Under the pieces are notes generated by a model. That model was not told the DNA's origin, searched no databases, and worked only from the letters and a program-made list of their open reading frames with translations. This document shows positions 3,936 to 18,572 of a stretch of 33,377 bases of DNA, one piece after another. Position 1 is the first letter of the stretch. Each line of letters starts with the position of its first letter. Source of the DNA: Pseudomonadota bacterium. Its GTDB lineage: Bacteria > Myxococcota_A > Polyangia > DRWM01. The stretch is taken from contig JBDRLK010000353.1 of NCBI GenBank assembly GCA_043813155.1, positions 1-33,377 on the forward strand. The letters are read 5' to 3'. The position numbers and the translations under genes were made by a program.

Positions 3936-4382
3936 ATGGGCTTTACGAGCAGCCATTTCATCAATGAAAAGGTGCCCATGAAATTCGTCATTATTTCGTC
4001 CGGGGCGAGCCTGATTGCCGCCCTGGTGTTCTGGCTGGCGAGCAGGCGGGTCATGGCATGGTTCCGGCCCTCGTGGTACATGTGGACGGCGGGAATCTTT
4101 GTTTTCTCCTATTTCATGGTCCTTGGAGGGATCCGGGGACTGAACATGTGGCTGGACAAAGGCAAGCCGCACATTTATAAAACGCAGATCCTTCACCTGG
4201 ACGATTCTATTTTTCCCCAGCTTCAACGTTACGTGTACGTTCGCTCATGGAGGGAGGGCCGGGTAAAGGAAAAGATTCCCATATCCATGAGAACAGGGCA
4301 AGGCATGTCCCCCGGTGACGATGTTACGGTCGAAGTGCAGGACGGCTACTTCGACATGCCCGCAATAACCGGCCTGCGTTGA
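3936..4382 (+). CDS. hypothetical membrane protein (2 TM helices plus soluble C-terminal domain)
   Basis: Only the 3' part of ORF 3441..4382 looks coding (FVIISSGASLIAALVFWLA, WTAGIFVFSYFMVLGG, then a charged domain). ATG 3936 is the first ATG past the stop of the upstream gene. GTG 3933 is possible, so the start is uncertain. Confidence 0.5.
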   Translation: MGFTSSHFINEKVPMKFVIISSGASLIAALVFWLASRRVMAWFRPSWYMWTAGIFVFSYFMVLGGIRGLNMWLDKGKPHIYKTQILHLDDSIFPQLQRYVYVRSWREGRVKEKIPISMRTGQGMSPGDDVTVEVQDGYFDMPAITGLR

Positions 4383-4386
4383 AAAG

Positions 4387-4425
4387 GGCGCATGAAGAAA
4401 ACATGCGCACCGCAGCGCCGTTTTT
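4387..4425 (+). terminator. possible intrinsic terminator or protein-binding inverted repeat
   Basis: GCGCATG-N7-CATGCGC (4388..4394 / 4402..4408) is nested in GGCGC...GCGCC and followed by a T5 run at 4421..4425, just after the stop at 4382. Confidence 0.3.
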
Positions 4426-4517
4426 AGACGACAGGCGAGCCGGGAAGCTCACCCGGGTGCATGAAAACCGTATTCACCTGCTTGACCTGAAGCTGATTTT
4501 CCGGCCTGATTACGGAT

Positions 4518-4533
4518 TGGCATTAATTTTGCT
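4518..4533 (+). promoter_or_regulatory. sigma54-type (-24/-12) promoter
   Basis: TGGCAT-TAATT-TTGCT has GG-N10-GC spacing and matches the TGGCAC-N5-TTGCW consensus. It lies about 40 nt upstream of the ATG at 4572. Confidence 0.6.
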
Positions 4534-4571
4534 TTATCGCGAAGCGGAAAAACAGGGAGGACAGAACATCC

Positions 4572-5342
4572 ATGACCGTAAAAGGAGAAGTCCTTTTAAT
4601 TGACCGCGAGGACAGCGGGATCGAGGCGCATGCCGTTGCGCTGTCCAAAGCGGGGCACAGCGTGTCCTGCACGTTCAACGGCAAAGAGGCCATCAAGAAA
4701 CTATCCGAGCACACCGTCGACCTCGTTGTGTCGGACACCGGTCTGCCCGACACCGACGGCATCCTGCTCTTGAGATCGATCAAGGACATTTCAAAGGATA
4801 TATATGTTGTCCTGATGGGCGAATGGCCGACCATCGAATTCACGAAAACGGCCATGAGCATCGGGGCGTACGACGTGCTCTGCAAGCCCGTGGAGCCGGA
4901 AAAGCTGTGCAGGGTGGTGCAGTCCGTGATTGCCGCGCGCCGGTACCGGCTTTCACAGATTGCCCGGGACCCGGCAACGAGAGGCGAGAAGCCTTCGCCC
5001 GAATGCACCTATGACGACCAGGGGCTGTGGTCCCGCACGCTGCCTAATGGAACCGTTGAGATCGGAATGTCGGCGAGCGGCTGGGTGGCCAGCGGGAAAA
5101 TGGTGTACATCACGCTTCCCGAGGAAGGCGCGGTAGTAAAGGAATGCGATCTTCTTTTCGAGATTGTTTCGAGCTATGGAAAAATCGGACAGGTTCACAG
5201 GGTCCTGTCGCCTTTGAGCGGAACGGTGATCGAGGTGAACGAGAATTTCAATGCCGAGCTCGTCAGGGCTGTCTGCGACCCCTGCGGCGGCCGGTGCTGG
5301 CAGACCCCGATTTTGAAAATAACGGTGGGGGCCGGGCCTTGA
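4572..5342 (+). CDS. response-regulator receiver domain fused to a GcvH-like (lipoyl/hybrid-barrel) domain
   Basis: N-terminus: REC motifs LLIDRED, VVSD(55)TGLPDTDG and LCKP. C-terminus aligns with glycine-cleavage H protein (GTVEIGMS...VYITLPEEGAVV...SPLSGTVIEVNENFN), but the ESVKA lipoyl-lysine context is not conserved. SD GGGAGG lies upstream. Confidence 0.8.
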   Translation: MTVKGEVLLIDREDSGIEAHAVALSKAGHSVSCTFNGKEAIKKLSEHTVDLVVSDTGLPDTDGILLLRSIKDISKDIYVVLMGEWPTIEFTKTAMSIGAYDVLCKPVEPEKLCRVVQSVIAARRYRLSQIARDPATRGEKPSPECTYDDQGLWSRTLPNGTVEIGMSASGWVASGKMVYITLPEEGAVVKECDLLFEIVSSYGKIGQVHRVLSPLSGTVIEVNENFNAELVRAVCDPCGGRCWQTPILKITVGAGP

Positions 5343-5452
5343 ATCTTGAATTTTGACATGGTTTGTTATGAACTTTTTTCATAGCGGACTTTGAGGTATG
5401 AAAATAATTCATAGAAAATACACGGAAAATTCAAGATTCAAGGCCCGGCCCC
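5328..5452. repeat. 125-bp element bounded by a perfect 27-bp inverted repeat
   Basis: GGGGCCGGGCCTTGAATCTTGAATTTT (5328..5354) is the exact reverse complement of 5426..5452. The left arm overlaps the last codons and stop of the upstream CDS. The interior is AT-rich. Confidence 0.75.
5353..5413 (+). promoter_or_regulatory. candidate regulated promoter: TTGACA hexamer plus two TATGAA-N5-TTCATA palindromes
   Basis: TTGACA at 5353..5358. 17-bp palindromes TATGAActtttTTCATA (5367..5383) and TATGAAaataaTTCATA (5397..5413) have centres 30 bp apart. They lie 56-100 nt upstream of the REC-NuoE start. No convincing -10 was identified. Confidence 0.4.
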
Positions 5453-5468
5453 AACAAGGAGGTTTAAA

Positions 5469-6407
5469 ATGCAACCACAGGTACTAATCGTTGATGACCA
5501 GCTGTCAGTCGTCAAATCCTGGGAGGCCATCCTGTCGGAAACGGGCATTTCCGTCACCGGAACGCGGGATGGAAAGGAAGCCTGGCAGCAGTTCCAGAAA
5601 AAGAAGTTCGACGCGGTTATTACCGATATCAGGATGCCGGGCATGGACGGGATCGAGCTTTTGGAAAAGATCAAGAAAGCCGACAGGAAGGTCGAGGTCA
5701 TCGTGCTGACGGGCTACGGCTCAAAGGAGAATGTTACAAGGGCAACGGACCTTGGAGCCTACGATTTCATTTTAAAGCCTGTTTCACCGCGCGACATGGT
5801 CAACACGACCATCGGGGCGCTCGGCCGGAGGGGCTTTGAACGCAGCAGGTTCAAGCCCAGATGGCAGTGGCTCGTGCGGCCGGCCGACGTGGCCGCGAAA
5901 ATGAAGGCGGAGCTGGAGAAGGCCGAAAGCAGGCCCGCGCCTGAAATCCCGAAGGAGCACTTCGAGAAGCTCGATGAGATCATAGCAAAGTGGCGGGGCA
6001 AGCCTGGATGCCTGATCCCTGCGCTCCAGGAAGCCCAGGGCCTCATCGGGTATCTTCCGCCTGAAATCCAGAAGATCATCGCGGCGGGTCTCGATCTGCC
6101 GGCCAGCGAGGTGTTCAGCGTGGTGACCTTCTATGCCTTCTTCACCCTGAAGCCGCGAGGCAAGTTCAACATCAGGGTGTGTCTCGGCACGGCGTGCTAC
6201 GTGAAGGGAGGCAGAGATATCGTGGGCAAGATAAGAGAGGGCATGGGCATCGGCATCGGTGACATTACCGACGACATGAAATTCTCCCTCGAGGCCGTCC
6301 GGTGCCTCGGCGCCTGCGGCCTTGCGCCTACCCTGACCGTGGGCCAGGACGTTCACGGCAGGATCAACCCGGCCAAGACCATGGAGATATTCAAGCAGTA
6401 TGAGTAA
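5469..6407 (+). CDS. response-regulator receiver domain fused to NuoE/HydC-type thioredoxin-like [2Fe-2S] subunit
   Basis: REC: LIVDD(9,10), VITD(53)IRMPGMDG, VLTGYG, ILKP. C-terminal half: NuoE motifs IPALQEAQ, CLGTAC (Cx4C) and CLGACGLAP (Cx3C). SD AAGGAGG lies upstream. Confidence 0.9.
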   Translation: MQPQVLIVDDQLSVVKSWEAILSETGISVTGTRDGKEAWQQFQKKKFDAVITDIRMPGMDGIELLEKIKKADRKVEVIVLTGYGSKENVTRATDLGAYDFILKPVSPRDMVNTTIGALGRRGFERSRFKPRWQWLVRPADVAAKMKAELEKAESRPAPEIPKEHFEKLDEIIAKWRGKPGCLIPALQEAQGLIGYLPPEIQKIIAAGLDLPASEVFSVVTFYAFFTLKPRGKFNIRVCLGTACYVKGGRDIVGKIREGMGIGIGDITDDMKFSLEAVRCLGACGLAPTLTVGQDVHGRINPAKTMEIFKQYE

Positions 6408-6455
6408 CGGCGGCGTGGCAACATTGTCCCCGGGGCCGGCCCCAAAGGAGGCGCA

Positions 6456-6842
6456 ATGAAACTCAAAGACGTGATCGCGGAAATCGAGGGGAAAATGCTG
6501 TGCGGCGAGGAGCTGCTTTCTGCAGACATCGAGACGGTCATGGCATCGGACATGATGAGCGATGTCCTGAGGTACTCGAAACCGGGCTCCATTCTCGTCA
6601 CGGGCAACAAGAACGTCCAGGCCGTGCGAACCGTGCTCATCGCGGAGCTGCGCGGCGCGATCCTGATCAGGAACAAGGCCCCGGCAAGGGAAATCCTGGA
6701 GCTTGCGCAGGAGAACGGGATTTTCATCGCCCTGACCGGGCTGGACATGTTCGAGGTGTGCGGCAGGCTGTACGAGAGAATGAAAGCAGCGCCGCCGCAA
6801 ACAAAAAAGGAGGATCAATCCGGCAGCAGGGCGGAAGTGTAG
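6456..6842 (+). CDS. DRTGG domain protein (copy 1)
   Basis: 128 aa and a clear paralog of 8654..9004 (shared ASDMMSDV, GRLY). This is the architecture of small DRTGG proteins found next to hydrogenase-like sensor genes. SD AGGAGG. Confidence 0.75.
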   Translation: MKLKDVIAEIEGKMLCGEELLSADIETVMASDMMSDVLRYSKPGSILVTGNKNVQAVRTVLIAELRGAILIRNKAPAREILELAQENGIFIALTGLDMFEVCGRLYERMKAAPPQTKKEDQSGSRAEV

Positions 6843-6861
6843 AGGGGGGCCGGGCGCTGCG

Positions 6862-7398
6862 ATGAGGGATATTTACGTATTCGAACAGAAGTTTCCGATA
6901 ACGGGCGGAGATTTTACCAATGCGGGCATGGCGTCCGTGGAGGTGAAATCCATACTGAAAAAAACGGGAATCGATTCGAAGAATGTCAGGAGGATATCCA
7001 TCGCGGTCTATGAAGCGGAGATGAACGTCGTTCTGTACTCACGGCAAGGAGTGCTGACGCTGCTCGTGACGCCGGAGAGCGTTTTCATTGTTTTCCAGGA
7101 CGAGGGGGAGGGCATCGAGGATATCGCCATGGCCATGAGAGAGGGCTTTACCACGTCGGACGAGAAAATACGGGAGCTGGGCTTCGGAAGCGGCATGGGG
7201 CTTCCCAACATCAAGGGGAATGCCGACTACTTGAAAATCACCTCCACCATGAAGAAAGGAACGACGCTGGAGATGGGGTTCGACCTGACGGGGAGGATTT
7301 CGGAGTCCGATAAAGAGGAGACCAGGACGAGGTACGACATGGAAAACGATATCAACATGTATCTTTGGAAAAAGAAGGGGTACGTAGAGAAGACATGA
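6862..7398 (+). CDS. anti-sigma-factor-like Ser/Thr protein kinase (RsbW/SpoIIAB-type GHKL ATPase)
   Basis: 178 aa. Bergerat-fold boxes EAEMNVV (N), DEGEGI (G1) and GFGSGMGL (G2). No DHp/H-box. Confidence 0.75.
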   Translation: MRDIYVFEQKFPITGGDFTNAGMASVEVKSILKKTGIDSKNVRRISIAVYEAEMNVVLYSRQGVLTLLVTPESVFIVFQDEGEGIEDIAMAMREGFTTSDEKIRELGFGSGMGLPNIKGNADYLKITSTMKKGTTLEMGFDLTGRISESDKEETRTRYDMENDINMYLWKKKGYVEKT

Positions 7399-8657
7399 TC
7401 TCATTGCGAATAGACGCTGACAAGTGCAACGGGTGCGTGAAGTGCATGCACGCCTGCCCCACCAGGGCGTTGAGGGTGAGAGATGGAACAGCGGTTATTC
7501 TGGACGATTATTGCATCGACTGCGGCGAGTGCGTCACGGCGTGCGAGAAGAACGCGATCGTTCCCCTCATCGATACGTTCGAGGACTTTTTTCAGAAGTT
7601 CAAGTTCAAGATCGCGCTGCCGTCCCCCGTGCTGTATTCCCAGTTCGGCGGCACTGTTCAGCCCAACGACATTCTCGCGGCCATACGAAGCCTGGGTTTC
7701 GGCTGCGTCGTGGACGAGGCCTACATCTGCGAGATGGTCAGCTCCGTGATCAAGCACTACGCGGACAAGAACAAGTCCGGCTTCCCCTATATTTCGTCGA
7801 TGTGCCCCGTTGTCACGCGGCTGATCCAGATGAGATTTCACGACCTGATCCACGCCATCATCCCGCTCCAGTCCCCGAGGGAGATCACGGCCCAGGAGCT
7901 CAAGCGAAAGTACTCGAAAAAGCTGGGCCTTCCGGAAGAGGACATAGGCGTGCTCTACATAACGCCCTGCTCGGCGAAGATCAACGCGATCAAGGACCCG
8001 CCTGCGAGGAAGAAGTCCACCATCGACGCCGCCATGGCGATCAAGGACATGTACATGCGGATCGCCAACAAGCTGTTCACGATCAGGGACAGTATCACTG
8101 AAGATGACGAGATGTACATGAGGGCGAGCGGGCTCGGCATCAGCTGGGGCATGGTAGGAGGGGAGATAGCCAATTTCGACCACAGCGAGTGCATCGCGGT
8201 TTCCGGCATAAGGGACGTCATCAAGATCCTCGAGGACATAGACAGGGGAAGGTTTTCCAACCTGCGCTACCTGGAATTGAGGGCATGCAGGGAAGGGTGC
8301 CTGGGCGGCAACCTGAACGTGGAGGACCGCTACGTGGCGAGAATGAACCTGATACGGCTGGTGGACATGTTCGGCAGTACTCCCAAGTTCGACAGGGAAA
8401 AGCTGATGCGGACCCACCAGAGCTACTTCTCCTTTGAAAAAGAGCCTTCTCCCATCAGGGAGACCGAGGCTCCCCTCAACCGCAGGAGGGACACGGCCAT
8501 TGAAATGCTCAACAGGGTCATCGAGATCCACGGCAGCCTGAAACAGATCGACTGCGGGGCCTGCGGCTCGCCGGACTGCGCGACATTCGCGGAAGACGTT
8601 GTCCGGGAATACTCCACGCTGGACCAGTGTGTTTTCATCGGGAGGGACAAGAAATGA
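7395..8657 (+). CDS. [FeFe]-hydrogenase-like protein, sensory (HydS-like) type without PAS domain
   Basis: N-terminal 2x[4Fe-4S] ferredoxin motifs CNGCVKCMHACP and CIDCGECVTACE. H-domain motifs SSMCP (for TSCCP), TPCSAK (for MPCxxK) and ELRACREGCLGG (for ExMxCxxGCxxG). C-terminal CGACGSPDC-x16-C. The start was chosen at the ATGA overlap with the upstream stop. ATG 7365 is an alternative. Confidence 0.85.
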   Translation: MISLRIDADKCNGCVKCMHACPTRALRVRDGTAVILDDYCIDCGECVTACEKNAIVPLIDTFEDFFQKFKFKIALPSPVLYSQFGGTVQPNDILAAIRSLGFGCVVDEAYICEMVSSVIKHYADKNKSGFPYISSMCPVVTRLIQMRFHDLIHAIIPLQSPREITAQELKRKYSKKLGLPEEDIGVLYITPCSAKINAIKDPPARKKSTIDAAMAIKDMYMRIANKLFTIRDSITEDDEMYMRASGLGISWGMVGGEIANFDHSECIAVSGIRDVIKILEDIDRGRFSNLRYLELRACREGCLGGNLNVEDRYVARMNLIRLVDMFGSTPKFDREKLMRTHQSYFSFEKEPSPIRETEAPLNRRRDTAIEMLNRVIEIHGSLKQIDCGACGSPDCATFAEDVVREYSTLDQCVFIGRDKK

Positions 8658-9004
8658 AACTTCGTGAAATAATTGAAAAGCTTGATTTCAAGGTGGTCAA
8701 CGAATCCGACAACATGGACGTGAACATCAGGCGCGGGTATGCAAGCGACATGCTCAGCGATGTCATTGCCAACGTCGGGGCCGATGATGTCTGGATCACC
8801 ATCCAGGCCCACCAGAACATCGTGGCCGTGGCCGTGCTCAAGGGAGTCGCGGCGATCATCATAGCGAACAAGAGGAATATCAACCAGGAAACGATCGCAA
8901 AGGCTAAGAGTGAAAACGTGGCCCTCATGCTCAGCGAGTTGCCGGTTTTCGAGATCGCTGGAAGGCTGTACGACATGGGGATCAGGGGGATCACGGAGCA
9001 ATGA
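8654..9004 (+). CDS. DRTGG domain protein (copy 2)
   Basis: 116 aa from ATG 8654 (ATGA overlap with the upstream stop). Paralog of 6456..6842. Confidence 0.75.
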   Translation: MKLREIIEKLDFKVVNESDNMDVNIRRGYASDMLSDVIANVGADDVWITIQAHQNIVAVAVLKGVAAIIIANKRNINQETIAKAKSENVALMLSELPVFEIAGRLYDMGIRGITEQ

Positions 9005-9777
9005 GCGCATTGCGGGAGTTCAGGGCGGACCTGCACGTCCATTCCTGCCTCTCGCCCTGTGCGGACATATTCATGACGCCCGCGAGGATAGCGAAGCGCG
9101 CCCGGGAGGCCGGATTGGACATGGTCGCCATCTGCGACCACAATTCCGCGGAGAACGCTCCCTACGGCGTGAAGGCCTGCGAGAGGTTGGAAGGGCTGAG
9201 CTTCCTGCCCGGCCTGGAAATCACGTCGGTGGAGGAAGTTCACGTCGTGGCGCTTTTCGCAGGCATCGCTGGCGCGCTGAAAATGCAGCGGGTTGTTTAC
9301 GACAAGCTGACGAAGGCGCCCAACGACAGCGACATGTACGGCGACCAGATCATCGTAAACGAGGACGACGAGGTGGAGGGCTTCAACGGCAGGTTGCTGA
9401 TCGGCTCCGTGGACATTGATTTGAAATCCCTGGTGGATCAGATTCACCGGCTGGACGGCATCGCCATTGCCGCGCACATAGACAAGACGTCGTTCGGGGT
9501 CGTGGGCCAGCTCGGGTTTATCCCCGAGGACGTTGACTTCGACGCTGTCGAGCTGTCCAGGTACGTGACGGACCGCAGCGAGGACTGGGAGCGGGAGGCG
9601 CAGAACAATTATTTCATGGGCCGCAGGTTTCCGATCCTGTTTTCCTCGGACGCCCACAGGCTCGAGGAAGTGGGAAAGCGAAGAACGATGTTTTTACTGA
9701 AATCGCCCGGGTTCGAGGAAATCAGGATGGCGCTCAAGGAGGTCGGCGGAAGAAAAGTACAGGCCCGGGAGACCTGA
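9001..9777 (+). CDS. PHP-family phosphoesterase
   Basis: 258 aa. PHP metal-ligand motifs DLHVHS, CDHNS, GLEITS, AAHIDK and SSDAH. ATGA overlap with the upstream gene. Confidence 0.85.
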   Translation: MSALREFRADLHVHSCLSPCADIFMTPARIAKRAREAGLDMVAICDHNSAENAPYGVKACERLEGLSFLPGLEITSVEEVHVVALFAGIAGALKMQRVVYDKLTKAPNDSDMYGDQIIVNEDDEVEGFNGRLLIGSVDIDLKSLVDQIHRLDGIAIAAHIDKTSFGVVGQLGFIPEDVDFDAVELSRYVTDRSEDWEREAQNNYFMGRRFPILFSSDAHRLEEVGKRRTMFLLKSPGFEEIRMALKEVGGRKVQARET

Positions 9778-9791
9778 AGGCTTCCGGCTCA

Positions 9792-9847
9792 GGGGCAGGG
9801 GAGGCTTTAGCCTCCCGGTTCAAGGGTAGGGGAGGCTTTAGCCTCCC
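9792..9847. repeat. two tandem REP-like hairpins
   Basis: GGGGAGGC-TTTA-GCCTCCC at 9798..9816 and again at 9829..9847 (the second preceded by GGGTA). Confidence 0.75.
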
Positions 9848-9864
9848 GTAAACAAAAAAGTCAA

Positions 9865-10416
9865 ATGGAAGATCTGTCGCTGCACATACTCGATATCATG
9901 CAGAATTCCGCGGAGCATGGCGCGGACACAATCGTTCTGCGAATCGAGGAGAACGCGGGCGACGACTTGCTCACGATCTCGATCCTGGACAATGGATCGG
10001 GAATGGACGAGAGCGCGGCGGCCAGGGTGACCGACCCGTTCTACACGTCCAAGGACAAGAGGGTCGGGCTCGGCGTCCCCCTGTTCAAGCAGGCGGCGCT
10101 GGCCGCGGGAGGCAGCTTCTCGATCGACTCGCAGGCCGGGAAGGGAACCGTGATCGAGGCGAGCTTCGACTATTCGAACATAGACCGCCAGCCCCTGGGC
10201 AATGTGGTGGACACGGTGATTTCCATACTCATCGCCTATCCCCATCTGCGGATTGTCTATACCCATGTGAAGGACGGGCAGGAGGCGGCCTTTGATTCCG
10301 AAGATTTCATGGAGCGCGCGGCAACGGCCGAGGGCGGGACCGCGGAGTACGCCGTGCTCTCCCTGATGAAAGGGGAATGGGAAAGCAGGCTCGGCGAAAT
10401 AGGCGCCGGCGAATAA
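9865..10416 (+). CDS. stand-alone GHKL (histidine-kinase-like) ATPase domain protein
   Basis: 183 aa. ILDIMQNSAEHGA (N box), LDNGSGMDE (G1), RVGLGVPLF (G2). No DHp/H-box or sensor domain. This resembles the small ATPase found between nuoE- and nuoF-like genes of bifurcating hydrogenase operons. Confidence 0.75.
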   Translation: MEDLSLHILDIMQNSAEHGADTIVLRIEENAGDDLLTISILDNGSGMDESAAARVTDPFYTSKDKRVGLGVPLFKQAALAAGGSFSIDSQAGKGTVIEASFDYSNIDRQPLGNVVDTVISILIAYPHLRIVYTHVKDGQEAAFDSEDFMERAATAEGGTAEYAVLSLMKGEWESRLGEIGAGE

Positions 10417-10428
10417 TGCCCCGCCGGG

Positions 10429-10480
10429 CAGGGGAGCCTTCAGGCTCCCCTGCTTCGGGAGGCTAAAGCCTCCCCTACCC
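10429..10480. repeat. REP-like hairpin pair
   Basis: CAGGGGAGCC-TTCA-GGCTCCCCTG (10429..10452) and GGGAGG-CTAAAG-CCTCCC (10457..10474, the inverted orientation of the CTTTAG type), followed by CTACCC. Confidence 0.75.
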
Positions 10481-10511
10481 CCAAGGGGCTATAAACCACG
10501 GAGGACCAATA

Positions 10512-10898
10512 ATGGCGAAATTGAAGATTGACGACCTCGACAGGATCAAGAAAAAAATGAAGGGTCAGATCCAGATCAGGGAGGGTGAGCACAGGGTGAA
10601 ATTGACCATCCACATGGGAACCTGCGGCATTGCCGCGGGCGCGCGCCCCCTCATGACGAGGATGCTCAAGGAGCTTTCAGACCGCAACATCACCGATGTT
10701 CGCCTCACGAGCTCGGGGTGCGCGGGGCTGTGCAGCCAGGAGCCCATGGCCACGGTCGAGATCAAGGGAGAGGCGCCGGTGAAGTACATCTCCCTCGACG
10801 AGGATAAAATGGTGGAAATCCTGGAGAAGCATGTTATCGGCGGCCGGATCGTGGAAAAGCACATGCTGGCCATGGGCAGCGAAAAAGTCCACGTGTAA
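10512..10898 (+). CDS. small thioredoxin-like [2Fe-2S] ferredoxin-domain protein
   Basis: 128 aa. HMGTCGIAAGA and SSGCAGLCSQEP motifs typical of the Trx-like ferredoxins encoded in HydABC-type operons. Only three Cys are present (C38, C70, C74). Confidence 0.8.
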   Translation: MAKLKIDDLDRIKKKMKGQIQIREGEHRVKLTIHMGTCGIAAGARPLMTRMLKELSDRNITDVRLTSSGCAGLCSQEPMATVEIKGEAPVKYISLDEDKMVEILEKHVIGGRIVEKHMLAMGSEKVHV

Positions 10899-10915
10899 CT
10901 TATATCTTGAATGGT

Positions 10916-11167
10916 GTGCGGGGCTTTAGCCCCGCCGAAGCGGCCCTGAAGGGCCGCACTGCGGAACGGAATGTTGGTGTGCGGGGCTTTAGCCCCGCCG
11001 AAGCGGCCCAGAAGGGCCGCACTGCGGAACGGAATGTTGTAGTGCGGGGCTTTAGCCCCGCCGAAGCGGCCCAGAAGGGCCGCACTACGGAACGGAATGG
11101 TGTAGTGCGGGGCTTTAGCCCCGCCGAAGCGGCCCTGAAGGGCCGCACTACGGCACCGAATTTAGTG
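10916..11167. repeat. 4 x 63-bp tandem repeat, each unit a double hairpin
   Basis: Units start at 10916, 10979, 11042 and 11105. Each carries GCGGGGC-TTTA-GCCCCGC and GCGGCCC-TGAA-GGGCCGC within GTGCGG...CCGCAC. A few substitutions separate the units. Confidence 0.9.
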
Positions 11168-11197
11168 AAGAGCCAGCATTTCAAGGAGGACCAGAAA

Positions 11198-14100
11198 ATG
11201 CCGGAAGCAAAGTACAGGATAGAATGTCTCGTATGCGCGGGAACCAGCTGCGTCGCCGGGGGCTCGTTCGAGCTGAAAGGGGTGCTCGAAGAGTCGATCA
11301 AAAAATTCGAGCTCCGGGACGAGGTGAGGGTCACCACGACGGGGTGCAACGGGTTCTGCGCCGCGGGCCCGATCATCAGGGTCATGCCCGACGACGTGTT
11401 TTACCAGTTCGTCACCCCCGGGGACGTGGACAAGTTCGTGGAGGAGCATTTCATCAAGGGCAGGGTTTACAAGCCGCTGCTCTACGAGGAGGACGAGACC
11501 AGGCAGAAAGTCCCGATCATGAGCGACATCGGGTTCTTCAAGCACCAGACGCTGATCGTTCTTCGCAACAGGGGGCTGATCGATCCGGAGGTCATCGACG
11601 AATATATCGGCAGGGACGGGTACAGGGCCGTGGCCAAGGCGCTCACGCAGATGACGCCCGAGGACATCAGGGCGGAGATGAAGAAATCCGGCCTCAGGGG
11701 AAGGGGAGGAGCCGGCTTCCCCACGGCGCTGAAGTGGGAGTTCTGCGCCAAGGCGCAGGGCGATATCAAGTACATGCTCTGCAACGCGGACGAGGGAGAC
11801 CCCGGCGCGTTCATGGACCGCAGCGTGCTGGAAAGCGACCCCCACGCCGTTCTCGAGGGAATGACCATCGGCGCAAAGGCCATCGGCTCTTCGGAGGGCT
11901 ACATCTACGTGAGGGCGGAGTACCCGCTCGCGATCAAGAGGCTGCAGATCGCCATCAGGCAGGCGCTGGATTACGGCCTGCTCGGCGACAACATCCTGGA
12001 CACGGGCTTCAACTTCCACCTCGACCTGTACTTCGGCGCCGGCGCTTTTGTCTGCGGCGAGGAGACGGCCCTCATGCGCTCCATCGAGGGCAAGCGGGGA
12101 ACGCCGCGGCCCAGGCCGCCCTTCCCGGCGCACAAGGGGTTGTGGGACAGGCCGTCCGTCCTCAACAACGTGGAAACGCTGGCCAACGTCCCGCAGATCA
12201 TTCAGAACGGCGGTGACTGGTACGCGAGCCTTGGGACCGAGCGAAGCAAGGGCACCAAGGTCTTCGCCCTGTCGGGCGCGGTCCAGAACATCGGCCTGGT
12301 GGAAATCCCCATGGGCGCGTCCATACGCACGCTGGTCTATGACATCGGCGGCGGCGCCAAGGCGGGCAAGCAGGTCAAGGCCATCCAGATGGGCGGGCCG
12401 TCGGGCGGGTGCATTCCCGAGAAAATATTCGACACGCAGATCGACTACGAGGAGATACAGAAGACCGGAGCCATCATGGGCTCGGGCGGCGTGGTGGTCA
12501 TGGACGACACCACCTGCATGGTCGACCTGGCCAGGTTTTTCCTTGACTTCACTTCCGAGGAGTCCTGCGGCAAGTGCGTGCCCTGCAGGATCGGGACCAA
12601 GGTCATGCTCGATGTGCTGGACAAGATCATCGCGGGCAACGGCGAGATGGAAGACCTCGACAAGCTGGAAGACCTTGGCAGGGACATTGCCGCGGCAAGC
12701 CTTTGCGGCCTTGGCCAGACGGCGCCCAATCCCGTCCTTTCCACGCTCAGGTACTACAGGCACGAATACGAGGCCCACGTCAAGGAGCAGTACTGCCCGG
12801 CGGGCAAGTGCAAGCGCCTGTCGCCCACGCCTTGCCAGGCCGCCTGCCCCATCGGGTCGGACATCTCGAGCTACGTGTCGCTCATCGGGCACGGGCGGTA
12901 CAATGACGCGCTGCAGGTCATTCTCGAGGATAACCCGCTGCCCGCGTCCCTGGGCAGGATCTGCGTTCACAAGTGCGAGGAAGGCTGCAGGCGGGCGGAG
13001 GTCGACACGCCCGTCTCCATCTGCGCCCTGAAGAGGGTCGCGGTGGACAAGGTTCCCGGCTACGTGGACGACGTCGAGCCCTGCGCCATAAGGTTCGACG
13101 AGAAAGTCGCCATCGTGGGCGCGGGCCCGGCGGGCGTCGCGGCGGCCTACGACCTGGTCCGCTACGGGTACGGCGTGACGATTTTCGACATGCTGAAGAA
13201 GGGCGGGGGCATGCTCAGGGCCGGGATTCCAGAATACAGGCTTCCGAGAAAGACCCTCGATGCCGAGCTGGGGAGGCTCGTGAAGATGGGCGTAAAATTC
13301 GAGTTCGGTAAAAAACTGGGCAAGGATTTTTCGCTGGGCAGCCTGCGCAAGCAGGGGTTCAAGGCGATCTTCATGGGCATCGGCGCCTACAAGGGAATGA
13401 AACTGCGGCTGGAGGGAGAGGACGAGGCCGGGGGGATTACGGACTGCATCGAGTTTCTCATGGAAAACAATCTCAAGGGCCACAAGAAGGCGGGCGACAA
13501 GGTGCTCGTCATCGGGGGCGGCAACGCGGCCATGGATGCCGCCCGCGTCTCCATACGCGTGGGCAGCGACGTGCGCCTGCTGTACCGCAGGACGCGCAAG
13601 GAGATGCCGGCGAACCCGGCCGAGATCGAGGCCGCCATCGAGGAAGGCGTGAACATGGAGCTGCTGGTGCAGCCCGTGGCGCTGCTCACGTCGAGCGGCA
13701 GGGTAAAGGGCCTCAAGTGCATCCGCAACGAGCTGGGCGAGCCGGACAAGAGCGGCAGGCGCAGGCCCGTGGCCATCGAGGGCAGCGAGTTCGACGTGGA
13801 GGCGGACGCCATCATCACGGCCATCGGGCAGTCTCCCGACCTGAGCTTCATCGGCAGCGGCTCGGGAGAGTTCGAGCTCAGCAGGTGGGGCACGATCAAG
13901 GTCGACCCCGATACCATGCAGACGAGCCAGAAGGACGTGTTCGCGGCCGGTGACGCGGTGACGGGCCCGGCCAGCGCCGTCGAAGCCATGGGAGGGGGAA
14001 GGCAGGCGGCTCACTCCATCCACTGCTTCCTGAGGGGCTTGCCCTTTGGCGTGTACAAGCATGCCAAGCCCATGAAGTTCCCGGAGCGTGTTCCGGTCAG

Positions 14101-14260
14101 GGAGGGAGAGCTCGACGGTCTCGAGAAGCCGAAGATGCCCCACATGTCCGTCGGGAAGAGGTGCAAGTGCTTCGACGAAGTGGAGCTCGGCCTGGATGAG
14201 AAAACCGCGATCATGGAAGCGAAACGGTGTCTTCGGTGCGATCTCCAGGCGGAGGAATAG
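11198..14260 (+). CDS. NuoF/HydB-type flavoprotein (N-terminal Trx-like 2Fe-2S, FMN/NADH site, 4Fe-4S) fused to a GltD-like NAD(P)H-dependent FAD oxidoreductase
   Basis: The start was chosen at an ATG 7 nt after AGGAGGA. Motifs: CLVCAGTSC...GCNGFCAAGP; GRGGAGFPT; CNADEGDPGAFMDR; ESCGKCVPCRIG...SLCGLGQ. Then the GltD part: CPAGKC...CQAACP...ICVHKCEEGC, VAIVGAGPAGVAAAYDL, VLVIGGGNAAMDAAR, LLYRRTRKEMPA. 1020 aa. Confidence 0.9.
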   Translation: MPEAKYRIECLVCAGTSCVAGGSFELKGVLEESIKKFELRDEVRVTTTGCNGFCAAGPIIRVMPDDVFYQFVTPGDVDKFVEEHFIKGRVYKPLLYEEDETRQKVPIMSDIGFFKHQTLIVLRNRGLIDPEVIDEYIGRDGYRAVAKALTQMTPEDIRAEMKKSGLRGRGGAGFPTALKWEFCAKAQGDIKYMLCNADEGDPGAFMDRSVLESDPHAVLEGMTIGAKAIGSSEGYIYVRAEYPLAIKRLQIAIRQALDYGLLGDNILDTGFNFHLDLYFGAGAFVCGEETALMRSIEGKRGTPRPRPPFPAHKGLWDRPSVLNNVETLANVPQIIQNGGDWYASLGTERSKGTKVFALSGAVQNIGLVEIPMGASIRTLVYDIGGGAKAGKQVKAIQMGGPSGGCIPEKIFDTQIDYEEIQKTGAIMGSGGVVVMDDTTCMVDLARFFLDFTSEESCGKCVPCRIGTKVMLDVLDKIIAGNGEMEDLDKLEDLGRDIAAASLCGLGQTAPNPVLSTLRYYRHEYEAHVKEQYCPAGKCKRLSPTPCQAACPIGSDISSYVSLIGHGRYNDALQVILEDNPLPASLGRICVHKCEEGCRRAEVDTPVSICALKRVAVDKVPGYVDDVEPCAIRFDEKVAIVGAGPAGVAAAYDLVRYGYGVTIFDMLKKGGGMLRAGIPEYRLPRKTLDAELGRLVKMGVKFEFGKKLGKDFSLGSLRKQGFKAIFMGIGAYKGMKLRLEGEDEAGGITDCIEFLMENNLKGHKKAGDKVLVIGGGNAAMDAARVSIRVGSDVRLLYRRTRKEMPANPAEIEAAIEEGVNMELLVQPVALLTSSGRVKGLKCIRNELGEPDKSGRRRPVAIEGSEFDVEADAIITAIGQSPDLSFIGSGSGEFELSRWGTIKVDPDTMQTSQKDVFAAGDAVTGPASAVEAMGGGRQAAHSIHCFLRGLPFGVYKHAKPMKFPERVPVREGELDGLEKPKMPHMSVGKRCKCFDEVELGLDEKTAIMEAKRCLRCDLQAEE

Positions 14261-14276
14261 AGGAAGCGTGCGCCTG

Positions 14277-14350
14277 AAAATCGCATGGTGCTGCGGGCCT
14301 TCGGCCCGCCCGACAATCGCATGGTGCTGCGGGCCCTCGGCCCGCCCGAA
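14277..14350. repeat. 2 x 36-bp tandem hairpin repeat
   Basis: AATCGCATGGTGCTGCGGGCC(T/C)TCGGCCCGCCCGA occurs twice (TCGCATGG at 14281 and 14317). Each copy has the hairpin GCGGGCC-(T/C)TC-GGCCCGC. Confidence 0.85.
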
Positions 14351-14364
14351 ACACGAGGTGAGTA

Positions 14365-16959
14365 ATGCAAGACAAGAATGAAAACATGATGACGCTGAAA
14401 ATCGACGGCAAGGAAGTTTCGGTCCCCAGGGGCTCGACCATTCTCGACGCGGCGATCAAGGCGGGCGTCTTTATCCCCACGCTATGTCATGACCCGAGGC
14501 TCAAGCCGTTCGGCGCGTGCAGGATGTGCGTGGTGCAGGTCGAGGGGCGGGGGCCCAGGTTCGTCACGGCCTGCAGCACGCCGGCCGATCCCGACACCAA
14601 CGTGATCACGACGAACGAAAGGATAGACAAGGCGCGAAGGACCGTCCTCGAGCTCCTGGCCGTGCACCACCCCGTTGACTGCCCTGTCTGCGACGCGGCC
14701 GGGGAATGCGAGTTCCAGAACCTCACGGCCTCCCTGAGGGGCACGGACCGCAGGAGGTTTGGCGGCGAGGAAAAGAGGTACGTGATCGACCGGCGCAATC
14801 CTCTCGTGGAAAGAAACCTCGCGCGCTGCATTGGATGCGGAAAATGCGTAAGGGTCTGCACGGAAGTGCAGGGAACGGCGGCCATCGATTTTCAGCACCG
14901 CGGTTTCGAGACGGGCATCGGCCCGGCCTTCCAGGAGCCGCTGGACTGCGATTTCTGCGGCCAGTGCGTGGACATCTGTCCCGTGGGCGCGCTCCAGAAC
15001 AGGCAGTACAAGTACACCACGCGCTCGTGGCTGCTCAACAAGGTGCCCGCGGTCTGCTGCTTCTGCGGCGACGGGTGCTCCCTCGAGGTCGGCGTGGGGC
15101 AGAGAGGCGAGATCGTGCGCGCAAAGAGCCGCGCCGCCCTGGGGTTCAACGAGGGGAACCTGTGCCAGCGGGGCAGGTTCGGGCACGATGTCCTGACCAG
15201 CCCGGCCAGGATAAACGAGCCCATGATCAGGAAGGACGGCAGCCTCATGGCCGTGGGGTGGAAGGATGCGCAGGCCAAAGCGGCCTCGGAGCTGGACAGG
15301 ATAAAGTCGAAGCACGGCGAGGGGTCCGTCGGTTTCATGGTGGGCGGACGGGTGGACAACGAGTCGCTGCTGGTGCTTTCGCGGTTTGCGGGCGAGGTCA
15401 TGAAGTCCGGAAACATCGCGAGCACGACGATGCGCCGCTACCGGGACTGGATCGACACGGCCCGCGAGGTCTGGGGCGTCGCGCCGCCCGCCATGGCCCC
15501 GGCCCGGGCCCTCGAGTCCGACCTGATCCTGGTCCTGGAATCGGAGATCAACGCCACGAACCCGCTCACGTGGATCAATATCCGCAAGGCGCAGATGCAG
15601 AGGGAGGCGGCGCTGGTCGTGGCGGACAGCAGGCGGACCAAGACGGGCTGGCGCGCGGGGAAATTTTTCGCCGTCGCGCCGGGAGGCTCGACCGAGCTTC
15701 TGCTGCGGGTTGTCGCGTCCATGGTGATCAAGGGTCTCGTGGACAGGGGCAAGCTGGGAGCCGTCGAGGGGTTTGACAAGTTCACGCGCGAGGCATCGGC
15801 GGCAAAGTCGGCATTGACCGAGGGCATCGAGCACACCGACGTCGGCTGGCTCGCCAACGCGCTGGCCGGGGCCGAGAACCCGCTCATCGTCCTCACGCTC
15901 GACTCGATGGAGAACATGAAGTCGAAGCCTCTCGTCAGGGCGGCGGCCGACCTCATGGTGCTCCTGGGCAAGGGCCCGGAGAACATCATGGTGCCCATGC
16001 CCGAGGCGAACATGCGGGGGCTCGTGGACAGCGGCCTTGCGGCCGGCGAGGGCGCCCGGGACGCGGCGCTTTTCATGAAGGATATTTCGGACGGAAAAAT
16101 CAAGGCGCTTTACGTGATCGGCGACGATCCGCTCTCGCGGCTGCCGGACCCGGCGGCCGTGGAAAAGGCTTTGGCGAGCCTCGAGCTCCTCGTGGTCCAG
16201 GACATCGTGCTGGGCCCCACGGCCAACATGGCCGACATTATCCTTCCGTCGGCGGGCTGGAGCGAGCACGAGGGGAGCTTCACCTGCTCGAGCGGCGTGA
16301 TCCAGGCTTTTGACAGGGCCGTCAATCCCGTGGGCGAGGCTGAAGCGGACTGGAAGATAATCAGCGGGATCAGCGCCAGGATGGGCTTTGATTTCGGTTA
16401 TAAAACAGTTGAGTCGATACGCAAGGATTACCTGGAGAAGTGGTACCCGGGTAAAAAGATCCTCAAGCCCGGCCTCTTCTCGTACGCGGAGCCGGGGCCT
16501 GCCGGGGAAGCCAAAGAGCCGGCAACGGGCAAGTTCATCGAGACGGGGTTCAAGGCAGCGCAGGCCACGCTCATCGCAAAGGAGCTGCAGCTCCAGACCG
16601 GGCCCATGCGCGGCCACAGCGGCGTCCTGTCCACCTACTCCGCGGCCATCACCTCGGTGTTCGGGGAGCCGAGGGCGCTCATCAACCCCGCCGACGCAAA
16701 AGCCCTTGGCGTGGAGGACGGCGGCAGCGTCAACGTCAAGTCCACGGCCGGCGACATCAGCGTGCGCGTGAAGGTGGACCACGAGATCCGCAAGGGCGTT
16801 ATTTTCATCCCCGCGCATTTCAGCGAGCCGCCCGTTCTGAGCCTGGTTCCGCCCGACGCCTACGCCGGCGGCGCGCCGGTCAAGGTCACGGTCACGCCCT
16901 TCAAGCTGCCGGCCAGGGCCTGCGAGGCCGCCGCCGCGTCCGCCGTATCCTCGAGCTGA
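14365..16959 (+). CDS. NuoG/formate-dehydrogenase-alpha-like Fe-S/molybdopterin-fold subunit lacking the Cys/Sec-His catalytic motif (SfrA-like)
   Basis: 864 aa. N-terminal 2Fe-2S (CHDPRLKPFGACRMC...C), His-ligated cluster HHPVDCPVCDAAGEC, 2x4Fe-4S (CIGCGKCVRVC, CDFCGQCVDICP) and a Mo-domain 4Fe-4S (CCFCGDGCS...C). Where Fdh has ...CCARV(U/C)HGPS..., this protein reads NIASTTMRRYRDW. There is no in-frame TGA. Confidence 0.85.
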   Translation: MQDKNENMMTLKIDGKEVSVPRGSTILDAAIKAGVFIPTLCHDPRLKPFGACRMCVVQVEGRGPRFVTACSTPADPDTNVITTNERIDKARRTVLELLAVHHPVDCPVCDAAGECEFQNLTASLRGTDRRRFGGEEKRYVIDRRNPLVERNLARCIGCGKCVRVCTEVQGTAAIDFQHRGFETGIGPAFQEPLDCDFCGQCVDICPVGALQNRQYKYTTRSWLLNKVPAVCCFCGDGCSLEVGVGQRGEIVRAKSRAALGFNEGNLCQRGRFGHDVLTSPARINEPMIRKDGSLMAVGWKDAQAKAASELDRIKSKHGEGSVGFMVGGRVDNESLLVLSRFAGEVMKSGNIASTTMRRYRDWIDTAREVWGVAPPAMAPARALESDLILVLESEINATNPLTWINIRKAQMQREAALVVADSRRTKTGWRAGKFFAVAPGGSTELLLRVVASMVIKGLVDRGKLGAVEGFDKFTREASAAKSALTEGIEHTDVGWLANALAGAENPLIVLTLDSMENMKSKPLVRAAADLMVLLGKGPENIMVPMPEANMRGLVDSGLAAGEGARDAALFMKDISDGKIKALYVIGDDPLSRLPDPAAVEKALASLELLVVQDIVLGPTANMADIILPSAGWSEHEGSFTCSSGVIQAFDRAVNPVGEAEADWKIISGISARMGFDFGYKTVESIRKDYLEKWYPGKKILKPGLFSYAEPGPAGEAKEPATGKFIETGFKAAQATLIAKELQLQTGPMRGHSGVLSTYSAAITSVFGEPRALINPADAKALGVEDGGSVNVKSTAGDISVRVKVDHEIRKGVIFIPAHFSEPPVLSLVPPDAYAGGAPVKVTVTPFKLPARACEAAAASAVSSS

Positions 16960-17153
16960 CGGCCCTGCCGGTCACGAAAATGCATCCGGGTACATTCAGG
17001 AGTGCAGGAAGTCCAATGACTTTCAGAACATGGATGGCATCGTACAGGGATGGCATGGCTATTTCTGTCCACGACAGGAATGAATGGACCGGGAGCCTGA
17101 GGGCTCGCGGCCGCACGGGATATCGACCGGCACCGGCAATTGGAAAATCCAGG

Positions 17154-17182
17154 TTGATTAAATTCCTTTTCGACTTCATAAT
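17154..17182 (+). promoter_or_regulatory. candidate sigma70 promoter
   Basis: TTGATT (17154..17159), a 17-nt spacer, then CATAAT (17177..17182). The -10 ends 8 nt before the ATG at 17191 and there is no SD. Confidence 0.35.
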
Positions 17183-17190
17183 CATTGTTG

Positions 17191-18426: not shown

Positions 18427-18572
18427 CAATTTCAATGACAAGCACACCTGTCCCGGGTCCGGGGGACACGCTTTCTGCAGGAACCCCATTAAAGAGCCGA
18501 ACCTTTTTCCTGTTGTCAGCGATAGGCTTGATGCTGTATGGTATTAGAAGGCAATGTAAAAGGGGAGAGCCC

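Follow-up and report, generated by a model that had tools for sequence, protein, structure and literature searches.

A group D [FeFe]-hydrogenase homologue in a gene cluster without a catalytic hydrogenase: a candidate hydrogen or redox sensor and its conserved signalling neighbours

The window analysed here is the whole of a 33,377-nucleotide stretch, the forward strand of contig JBDRLK010000353.1 (assembly GCA_043813155.1, a Pseudomonadota bacterium placed by GTDB in the Myxococcota_A), and it carries a gene for an [FeFe]-hydrogenase homologue, hereafter HydS, that by sequence comparison is a clear but divergent member of the already described group D (M2e) and does not constitute a new class. 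It is fairly probable that HydS acts as a slow sensor of H2 or of redox state, of the type of TamHydS, the model enzyme of group D, and that with a coupled set of signalling proteins it controls the Bfu-type enzyme encoded in the same cluster. The cluster in the window encodes no catalytic hydrogenase, and it is this context and not the HydS protein that is the new part, the partner being an Nfn-like Bfu complex in which a receiver (REC) domain is fused to NuoE. The window and 84 related loci bear on the function that group D [FeFe] hydrogenases have in the cell; the group has been called 'functionally undefined' (PMC11216029), its interaction partners are described as unidentified and their identification has been named the critical next step (PMC13104023).

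The HydS gene and the parts of its product that carry the assignment are as follows, with conserved sites numbered after CpI (C299, P301, M353, K358, M497) or TamHydS:

7395-8657, plus strand: group D (M2e) [FeFe]-hydrogenase homologue HydS, 420 residues (Pfam, BLAST against TamHydS, AlphaFold2 (AF2) model)
7404-7559, plus strand: N-terminal ferredoxin-like domain for two [4Fe-4S] clusters (C11, C14, C17, C21; C40, C43, C46, C50; Pfam Fer4)
7794-7808, plus strand: P1 motif SSMCP (residues 134-138), with M136 at the proton-relay Cys site and C137 as [4Fe-4S]H ligand
7962-7979, plus strand: P2 motif TPCSAK (residues 190-195), with T190 at the M353 site and C192 and K195 retained
8163-8165, plus strand: E257, equivalent of TamHydS E252, the group D proton relay beside the azadithiolate (ADT) amine (BLAST alignment to TamHydS; PMC10407848)
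8274-8300, plus strand: P3 motif ELRACREGC (residues 294-302), with E294 equivalent to TamHydS E289, R296 at the M497 site and C298 and C302 as ligands
8553-8630, plus strand: C-terminal Cx2Cx4Cx16C accessory [4Fe-4S] motif (C387, C390, C395, C412; PF04060)

The start codon ATG at 7395 shares the letters ATGA with the stop of the upstream ATPase gene, and an alternative TTG start lies 30 nt upstream of it. Pfam places Fer4 dicluster motifs at residues 4-55, Fe_hyd_lg_C (PF02906) at 73-305 (E 3.8e-29) and the 'FeS' domain PF04060 at 384-414 (E 1e-9), and a Pfam scan of the 420 residues finds no PAS or other output domain, the protein ending 8 residues beyond C412. In HMMER alignments to solved [FeFe] hydrogenases SSMCP falls on the TSCCP of DdH, TPCSAK on MPCIAK and ELRACREGC on the EVMTCPEGC of HDCR HydA2, so that C137, C192, C298 and C302 align with the ligand Cys of the solved enzymes. 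The initial annotation, which was made from the sequence alone, had described a HydS-like, sensor-type homologue with all four H-cluster cysteines, a relay Cys replaced by Met and both framing Met replaced (here Thr190 and Arg296) with the ligand Cys and the Lys kept, an extra Cx2Cx4Cx16C motif and no PAS domain, and in all of this it is borne out by the PF02906 match, the 38% identity to TamHydS reported below, the alignments, the translation and the domain scan.

An AF2 model of HydS with a 24-sequence alignment as input has a mean predicted local distance difference test score (pLDDT) of 78.7, and Foldseek superimposes it on DdH, CpI, CbA5H and the HydA of HydABC with template modelling (TM) scores of about 0.6-0.66. 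The features of HydS are not due to chance, given the extreme family E-values and cysteines that are invariant in 85-86 of 86 relatives. From its sequence HydS most likely carries a complete H-cluster without the proton relay of group A, and since that relay is lacking, slow H2 turnover would be expected, as of a sensor rather than a metabolic enzyme.

Group D (M2e) was defined by the absence of a PAS domain, a Cx2Cx4Cx16C motif and the loss of C299 and of both methionines (Land et al. 2020, PMC8163306); within it a hydroxyl residue (Ser/Thr) at M353 is 'well conserved' and the M497 position is poorly conserved (PMC8163306). TamHydS is able to bind [2Fe]adt; its activity is low, its affinity for H2 is high and a gene for a kinase-like ATPase flanks its own (PMC8163306). 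It converts H+ to H2 and back (PMC8163306; PMC10407848). In TamHydS numbering E252, E289, S249 and D265 make up a proton pathway specific to group D, of which E252 and E289 have been mutagenised (PMC10407848), and H2-induced changes in the secondary structure of TamHydS are reported, as cited in PMC13104023. The TamHydS sequence used here was reconstructed from a coding sequence in the supporting information of PMC13104023 that was damaged by optical character recognition, and the reconstruction is considered sound because all eleven residue numbers published there fit it (C20, R30, R32, K35, K58, D378, C379, E392, D393, D403, C404).

HydS matches TamHydS over its full length of 420 residues at 38% identity (BLAST, E 2e-97); its matches to group A enzymes are local, of about 20-25% identity, with the best PDB match (group A/HDCR) at E 8e-17. 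The references of this class comparison were TamHydS and group A sequences only, and in the neighbour-joining (NJ) tree HydS groups with TamHydS and the group A3 HydA falls outside. NCBIfam holds no group-D-specific model and every hydrogenase model in it is far under its cut-off for HydS, the group A and B models scoring 88-97 bits against cut-offs of 406-450. A sequence search of the PDB with HydS returns catalytic group A-type, CbA5H and HDCR enzymes only and no group C or D structure. At the diagnostic sites HydS has no relay Cys and neither of the framing Met of group A (SSMCP, TPCSAK, ELRACREGC), a group further marked by the E279/S319/E282/R286 relay, it lacks the C-terminal PAS domain of group C (M2f), and along the group D proton pathway it has glutamates at the inner sites (E257, E294) with Val254 at S249 and Ser270 at D265. 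M2e genes are said to share an operon 'often' with a group A hydrogenase (PMC8163306); this is an association and not a strict criterion, and it is absent here, where neither a second H-domain nor a [NiFe] subunit is found within the 33-kb window. In the nomenclature of HydDB the protein probably corresponds to the label 'group C1, histidine-kinase-linked', judging from the descriptions in PMC8542988 and PMC11406978.

The C-terminal motif had been likened in the initial annotation to that of the sensory group C hydrogenases, with the missing PAS domain standing out against it. The spacing does agree, but the proper comparison is with group D, where the absence of PAS is expected (PMC8163306). 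A group C HydS that was truncated or has decayed after loss of its PAS domain, whether as a pseudogene or as an assembly artefact, would resemble the protein superficially in the C-terminal cluster motif only, and it has next to no probability: the reading frame runs uninterrupted to a stop codon that overlaps the start of the next gene, and a common end point and architecture are found in all 86 relatives. A database search with HydS gives 1,851 protein clusters at E <= 1e-10, the best 120 of which have a uniform length and an identical domain set, with the nearest non-self matches at 65% and 62% identity and the rest at 47% or less. At least 569 carriers of the family are found in a scan of GTDB with one genome per species, the best 80 of them being metagenome-assembled genomes (MAGs) of WOR-3, Ignavibacteria, Zixibacteria, Aminicenantes, Acidobacteriota, Desulfobacterota, Sumerlaeota, Bacteroidota and Clostridia-like lineages. 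The uniform architecture of the family excludes the truncation.

Residue conservation, counted over the 86 family members, is distributed as follows:

Four H-cluster Cys: 85-86 of 86 relatives; C137, C192, C298 and C302 in the window
P301: 86 of 86 relatives; P138 in the window
K358: 81 of 86 relatives; K195 in the window
E289 equivalent: 84 of 86 relatives; E294 in the window
M353 position, Thr or Ser: 79 of 86 relatives; T190 in the window
C-terminal Cys: C387, C390 and C395 in 86 of 86 relatives, C412 in 85 of 86
C299 position: free, with F in 30, A in 17, T in 14, M in 4 and others among the 86 relatives; M136 in the window
M497 position: free, with H in 22, Y in 19, L in 11, R in 10 and others among the 86 relatives; R296 in the window
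E252 equivalent: Glu in only 27 of 86 relatives; E257 in the window

As the C299 and M497 positions vary freely across the family, Met136 and Arg296 are two among many tolerated residues and no special signature.

The same counts bear on whether the family handles H2 at all. The H-domain might bind a [4Fe-4S] cluster only, without [2Fe], in the manner of the eukaryotic Nar1/NARFL proteins. In that case HydS would signal the redox state of ferredoxin or NAD(P)H, and not H2, and the kinase-like, DRTGG and PHP proteins that receive the signal would control the bifurcating enzyme next to them. Retention of the four Cys is no obstacle to this, as Nar1-type proteins keep them too, and most relatives have a residue beside the ADT amine that cannot be protonated. 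Maturase genes are not found in the window, the partner enzymes described below are overwhelmingly non-hydrogenases (one HydA in 60 clusters) and H-cluster motifs are hardly found in the Hydrogenedentota homologues of HydDB group C1 (PMC11406978). However, [2Fe]adt is incorporated by TamHydS, a member of this family that converts H+ to H2 and back (PMC8163306; PMC10407848), the residues that line the [2Fe] site (K358, P301 and the Ser/Thr at M353) are almost invariant, and both proton-relay glutamates are kept in the HydS of the window. A sensor of the Nar1 kind would seem unlikely, if not negligibly so.

HydS would need partners to pass a signal on, and it is surrounded by candidates for that function, with a second ATPase a little further downstream:

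6456-6842, plus strand: DRTGG-domain protein 1 (Pfam DRTGG, E 6.6e-10)
6862-7398, plus strand: SpoIIAB-like GHKL ATPase/kinase (HATPase_c_2) without a His-phosphotransfer domain (Pfam)
8654-9004, plus strand: DRTGG-domain protein 2 (weak Pfam DRTGG match, E 1.8e-4, 21.7 bits against a cut-off of 25.2 bits)
9001-9777, plus strand: PHP-family phosphoesterase (Pfam PHP, PHP_C)
9865-10416, plus strand: small HATPase_c protein, the 'hisK' of Bfu/HydABC operons (Pfam HATPase_c, E 2.7e-14)

The adjacent kinase, DRTGG and PHP proteins had already been named in the initial annotation as the route that any output would have to take, and Pfam and NCBIfam identify these genes as real. The protein encoded at 6862-7398 matches the NCBIfam anti-sigma F factor model under its curated cut-off (E 1.4e-14) and anti-sigma F factor in the PDB (1til/1l0o), and DRTGG protein 2 has a probable ATG start at 8654 that overlaps the HydS stop codon. 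ATGA start/stop overlaps join the genes for the ATPase, HydS, DRTGG protein 2 and the phosphoesterase and suggest that their translation may be coupled.

The arrangement is conserved. All stop-to-stop open reading frames (ORFs) of the window and the 84 related loci, 85 clusters in total, were surveyed with the window's own domains, the genuine HydA H-domain of locus L080 and an HdrA-like domain as queries. The pair of DRTGG and HATPase_c_2 occurs in 83 of the 85 clusters, with the ATPase gene directly upstream of HydS in at least 69 of the 81 cases that could be evaluated and, among 72 such cases, a PHP gene no more than 2 kb downstream in 48; the order DRTGG-PHP-HATPase_c is visible in gene maps, and most remaining loci have a second architecture that consists of DRTGG2, a fused DRTGG1::ATPase, HydS and NuoE. 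This conserved synteny strongly supports a predicted output of HydS through the kinase-like, DRTGG and PHP proteins, and it provides a concrete, testable set of partners for group D in the form of two DRTGG proteins, a SpoIIAB-like kinase and a PHP phosphoesterase.

The remaining genes of the cluster encode the candidate target, an enzyme of the NuoEF (Bfu) type, and an additional receiver-domain protein:

4572-5342, plus strand: REC domain fused to a GcvH-like domain (Pfam Response_reg E 2.5e-19, GCV_H E 1.7e-9)
5469-6407, plus strand: REC fused to a NuoE/HoxE-type [2Fe-2S] subunit, BfuC-like (Pfam Response_reg E 6.5e-32, 2Fe-2S_thioredx E 7.8e-45)
10512-10898, plus strand: small [2Fe-2S] ferredoxin-like protein (NCBIfam 2Fe-2S ferredoxin E 2.8e-8, under curated cut-off)
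11198-14260, plus strand: NuoF (BfuB-like) fused to a GltD/NfnB-like NAD(P)H-FAD module, about 1020 residues (Pfam Complex1_51K, NADH_4Fe-4S, Fer4_20, Pyr_redox_2)
14365-16959, plus strand: BfuA/NuoG-like subunit with a molybdopterin domain like that of formate dehydrogenase (FDH) without the catalytic Sec/Cys-His, 864 residues (Pfam; best NCBIfam match NuoG, under cut-off)

REC::NuoE matches the NCBIfam HoxE/NuoE models under their curated cut-offs, and the residues of a canonical receiver are present in the translation of its N-terminus (acceptor Asp53, Thr81, Lys103). The fusion recurs only in L041 among the 84 related loci, and it suggests that the flavoenzyme may be directly controlled by phosphorylation. 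Another unusual pairing is that of REC with a GcvH-like domain, which has the lipoyl-carrier fold, in the protein encoded at 4572-5342. For NuoF::GltD the NCBIfam matches (nuoF_fam E 3e-149, GltD-type E 1e-138) are likewise both under curated cut-offs; its start at ATG 11198 is preceded by the ribosome-binding site AAGGAGG and its homologues have 1022-1029 residues. An ORF of 1117 residues from TTG 10907 was rejected as an over-extension of NuoF through a tandem repeat, ATG 11198 being the true start. The 864-residue protein was considered as a formate dehydrogenase and ruled out, as Arg-Tyr stands at the Sec/Cys-His site, aligned with the U-H of the selenocysteine FDH of L081 and with the C-H of R. 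capsulatus FdsA; by this alignment it is a NuoG-like relic and not an FDH.

By their predicted domains REC::NuoE, NuoF::GltD and the degenerate FDH-like BfuA make up a Bfu-type complex that is not a hydrogenase. It most resembles an NAD(P)H/ferredoxin transhydrogenase of the Nfn-Bfu type with its domains arranged differently (PMC9304861), an assignment suggested because the GltD/NfnB-like NAD(P)H-FAD domain is the only evident module for a third substrate.

With the two sets of genes so close together, HydS could be thought of as the catalytic, H2-activating subunit of the NuoEF complex in the place of HydA, which would make the whole a new bifurcating hydrogenase, for example of the type H2 : NADP+/ferredoxin. 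The synteny with NuoE, NuoF and BfuA is tight and conserved, the phylogeny of the sensors tracks the partner type, the BfuA of the window has no catalytic site, TamHydS is a slow yet genuine hydrogenase, and a metabolic role has been raised for the homologues of Cloacimonadota (PMC8542988). It would nonetheless seem quite improbable that this is its function: the HydS gene is always bracketed by GHKL ATPase, DRTGG and PHP genes and not by those of redox subunits, HydA docks onto HydBC by a NuoG-like N-terminal domain that HydS does not have, the turnover of HydS would lie orders of magnitude under that of group A, and a third substrate site, for NAD(P)H, is already supplied by GltD. In addition HydS coexists with a true HydA in one cluster in Firmicutes (PMC8163306) and in L080.

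The survey also revealed which enzymes accompany the module elsewhere. NuoF lies within 10 kb of HydS in 60 of the 85 clusters, and its partners in these are:

NuoG-N::HdrA-C fusion without a GltD-type module: 19 of 60 clusters
NuoG-N::HdrA-C fusion with a GltD-type module: 7 of 60 clusters
Molybdopterin protein with GltD: 13 of 60 clusters
GltD alone: 4 of 60 clusters
Molybdopterin protein alone: 3 of 60 clusters
Glutamate-synthase-domain protein: 4 of 60 clusters
True group A HydA: 1 of 60 clusters (L080, a Bacillota MAG)
Nothing recognisable: 9 of 60 clusters

The commonest partner is a protein of about 590 residues (15717-17492 in L009, and about 25 other loci) in which a HydA/NuoG-type N-terminus is joined to the C-terminal two thirds of HdrA, with versions of about 1,090 residues in L059, L060 and L079. 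HydA was considered as its identity and ruled out, as the query with the genuine HydA H-domain found none among these proteins and the PDB search identified an HdrA fusion (E 7e-112 to HdrA 8rvv_A). Some of the molybdopterin proteins are genuine FDHs of the selenocysteine type, and FDHs with an in-frame TGA (selenocysteine) stand beside the sensor module at 6664-8733 in L027, 5741-8629 in L069 and 15668-18400 in L081. The one genuine group A3 HydA found beside a group D module (8849-10705 in L080) is itself peculiar, its P1 motif reading TSCSPGW with Ser at the second Cys of TSCCP. In L002 (7076-19276) and L003 (7203-19161), which are of the WOR-3 type, the first gene of the operon encodes glutamate dehydrogenase and the last, behind those for NuoF::GltD and a short BfuA, a Glu_synthase-domain protein, an arrangement that hints at a NuoEF-linked and possibly bifurcating glutamate synthase.

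When the NJ tree is rooted on the HydA of L080 the sensors group by partner type; TamHydS and L080 form one small subclade, and the window and L001 a branch of their own of the NuoF::GltD type. This is a distance tree without support values, in which the broad pattern only is trustworthy. L010 has tandem group D paralogues (7358-8632 and 9962-11260) with separate DRTGG and ATPase genes, and these fall into different partner-type clades.

Synteny across the family thus suggests that the module may serve bifurcating enzymes in general. A wider proposal, which we put forward only tentatively, is that the set of DRTGG, SpoIIAB-like kinase, HydS, DRTGG and PHP is a widespread H2- or redox-responsive, post-translational controller of NuoEF/Bfu bifurcating enzymes at large (HdrA-, GltD/Nfn-, FDH- and glutamate-synthase-linked ones included) and not primarily of hydrogenases; here it would act on an Nfn-like complex with a receiver domain on NuoE, and the HydABC case of the Firmicutes would be one minor branch. 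Outside the Firmicutes the group D module is mostly attached to non-hydrogenase bifurcating enzymes. No description of such an association is found in the literature searched, an absence that is no proof of novelty. If the pattern holds, H2 or the redox state of ferredoxin would be a signal that tunes the enzymes balancing NAD(P)H and ferredoxin, and counts of '[FeFe] hydrogenase' genes in MAGs would give too high an estimate of the ability to metabolise H2 in phyla such as WOR-3, Aminicenantes, Zixibacteria and Ignavibacteria.

How a TamHydS-type sensor might control the enzyme beside it can be outlined in three steps, and we infer each of them, as we do the assembly of the H-cluster in vivo and H2 as the signal. 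The state of the H-cluster would be set by H2, or by the redox state of ferredoxin equilibrated through the N-terminal clusters; a conformational change would then be sensed by the kinase-like protein and by the DRTGG and PHP proteins bound to HydS, in the manner of a partner-switching or phosphorylation cycle; and the output would tune the activity of the co-encoded bifurcating enzyme, possibly by way of the receiver domain fused to NuoE. On sequence grounds post-translational control would be more attractive than control of transcription, because the module has no DNA-binding domain and because a canonical receiver domain is fused to NuoE, that step being speculative. A further reason is that transcription appears to be handled separately by sigma-54, for which the window has a candidate promoter:

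4518-4533, plus strand: near-perfect sigma-54-type promoter consensus TGGCATTAATTTTGCT (TGGCAT-N5-TTGCT), 39 nt upstream of the first gene of the cluster

This is the single match to the consensus in the window, where 0.01 would be expected by chance, and in the homologous operons of L002, L003 and L004 the consensus is again found upstream, directly after a gene for a REC-sigma54-activator; in the WOR-3 relatives such an activator is adjacent.

Several observations weigh against such a sensor. It is not obvious why the adjacent enzyme should be controlled by H2, as it neither produces nor consumes H2. No HydE/F/G maturase genes are found within the 33-kb window. In 59 of the 86 relatives the ADT-adjacent Glu is swapped for Gln or a hydrophobic residue, and because of this loss H2 chemistry may not hold for the whole family. 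Neither ATPase of the cluster has a His-phosphotransfer domain, which makes a direct link from the kinase-like proteins to the REC domains speculative. The sensory role of group D is moreover still termed 'putative' in the literature (PMC11216029; PMC13104023).

Elsewhere in the window scans for sigma-70 promoters and terminators gave background levels only, and one repeat was found:

10912-11161, plus strand: intergenic tandem repeat of 63 bp in 4 copies (TRF, 95% matches), with two GC-rich hairpins per unit

It separates the ferredoxin gene from the true start of nuoF::gltD, and its RNA fold has a z-score of -7.8; no further copy of the unit is present elsewhere in the window, and Rfam has no match in 4000-18000, the repeat included. 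Downstream of the cluster a diguanylate cyclase with a triple PAS and a GGDEF domain is encoded at 18435-20153 on the plus strand, and a 1.3-kb stretch before that gene (17182-18489) has long ORFs on both strands that match no family. A search with the methylmalonyl-CoA mutase has its nearest named matches in MAGs of Deltaproteobacteria, Myxococcota and Planctomycetota, at no more than 69% identity.

Of the known systems TamHydS is the closest. The two proteins have in common a PAS-less layout of three domains, the four H-cluster Cys and the Lys, the loss of C299, a hydroxyl residue at M353, the relay glutamates E252 and E289, the Cx2Cx4Cx16C motif with an adjacent Asp and a Glu-Asp pair, and a gene for a kinase-like ATPase directly upstream. 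They differ at the C299, M353 and M497 sites, where the window has Met, Thr and Arg and TamHydS has Ala, Ser and Leu, and the window has Val at S249, Ser at D265, Gln at D403 and Thr at K35. Whereas the TamHydS gene lies upstream of a group A3 HydABC, that of the window is clustered with REC::NuoE, NuoF::GltD and a dead FDH-like subunit. The group C (M2f) proteins TmHydS and RaHydS share the N-terminal 2x[4Fe-4S] domain, an H-domain without relay Cys and framing Met and the C-terminal Cx2Cx4Cx16C motif, and a role as H2 sensor has been proposed for group C as for group D. Unlike HydS they have a C-terminal PAS domain and partners of the Ser/Thr kinase and PP2C type; TmHydS has Gly at M353 and the group-D-specific Glu relay is not there. 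The MAG papers that use the C1 label of HydDB place a monomeric hydrogenase directly downstream of a gene with a histidine-kinase domain, sometimes with bifurcation-type subunits (PMC8542988; PMC11406978), which is similar to the arrangement in the window.

The co-encoded enzyme is best compared with the Bfu family (HydABC, NfnABC, Fdh-Bfu; Schut et al. 2022), of which it has BfuC (NuoE), BfuB (NuoF), BfuA (with a NuoG-like N-terminus) and an Nfn-like GltD module, together with small HATPase_c and ferredoxin genes, the usual passengers of Bfu operons outside the holoenzyme. It differs from the family in that GltD is fused to NuoF rather than to BfuA, in the receiver domain on NuoE and in a BfuA that bears an FDH-like domain without the catalytic Sec/Cys-His. 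Finally, the regulatory [NiFe] hydrogenase HoxBC with its kinase HoxJ offers a functional analogy only: there too a slow hydrogenase is a sensor of H2 and signals through an associated kinase, but it belongs to an unrelated family of metalloenzymes and its output is that of a classical His kinase and response regulator acting on hydrogenase transcription.

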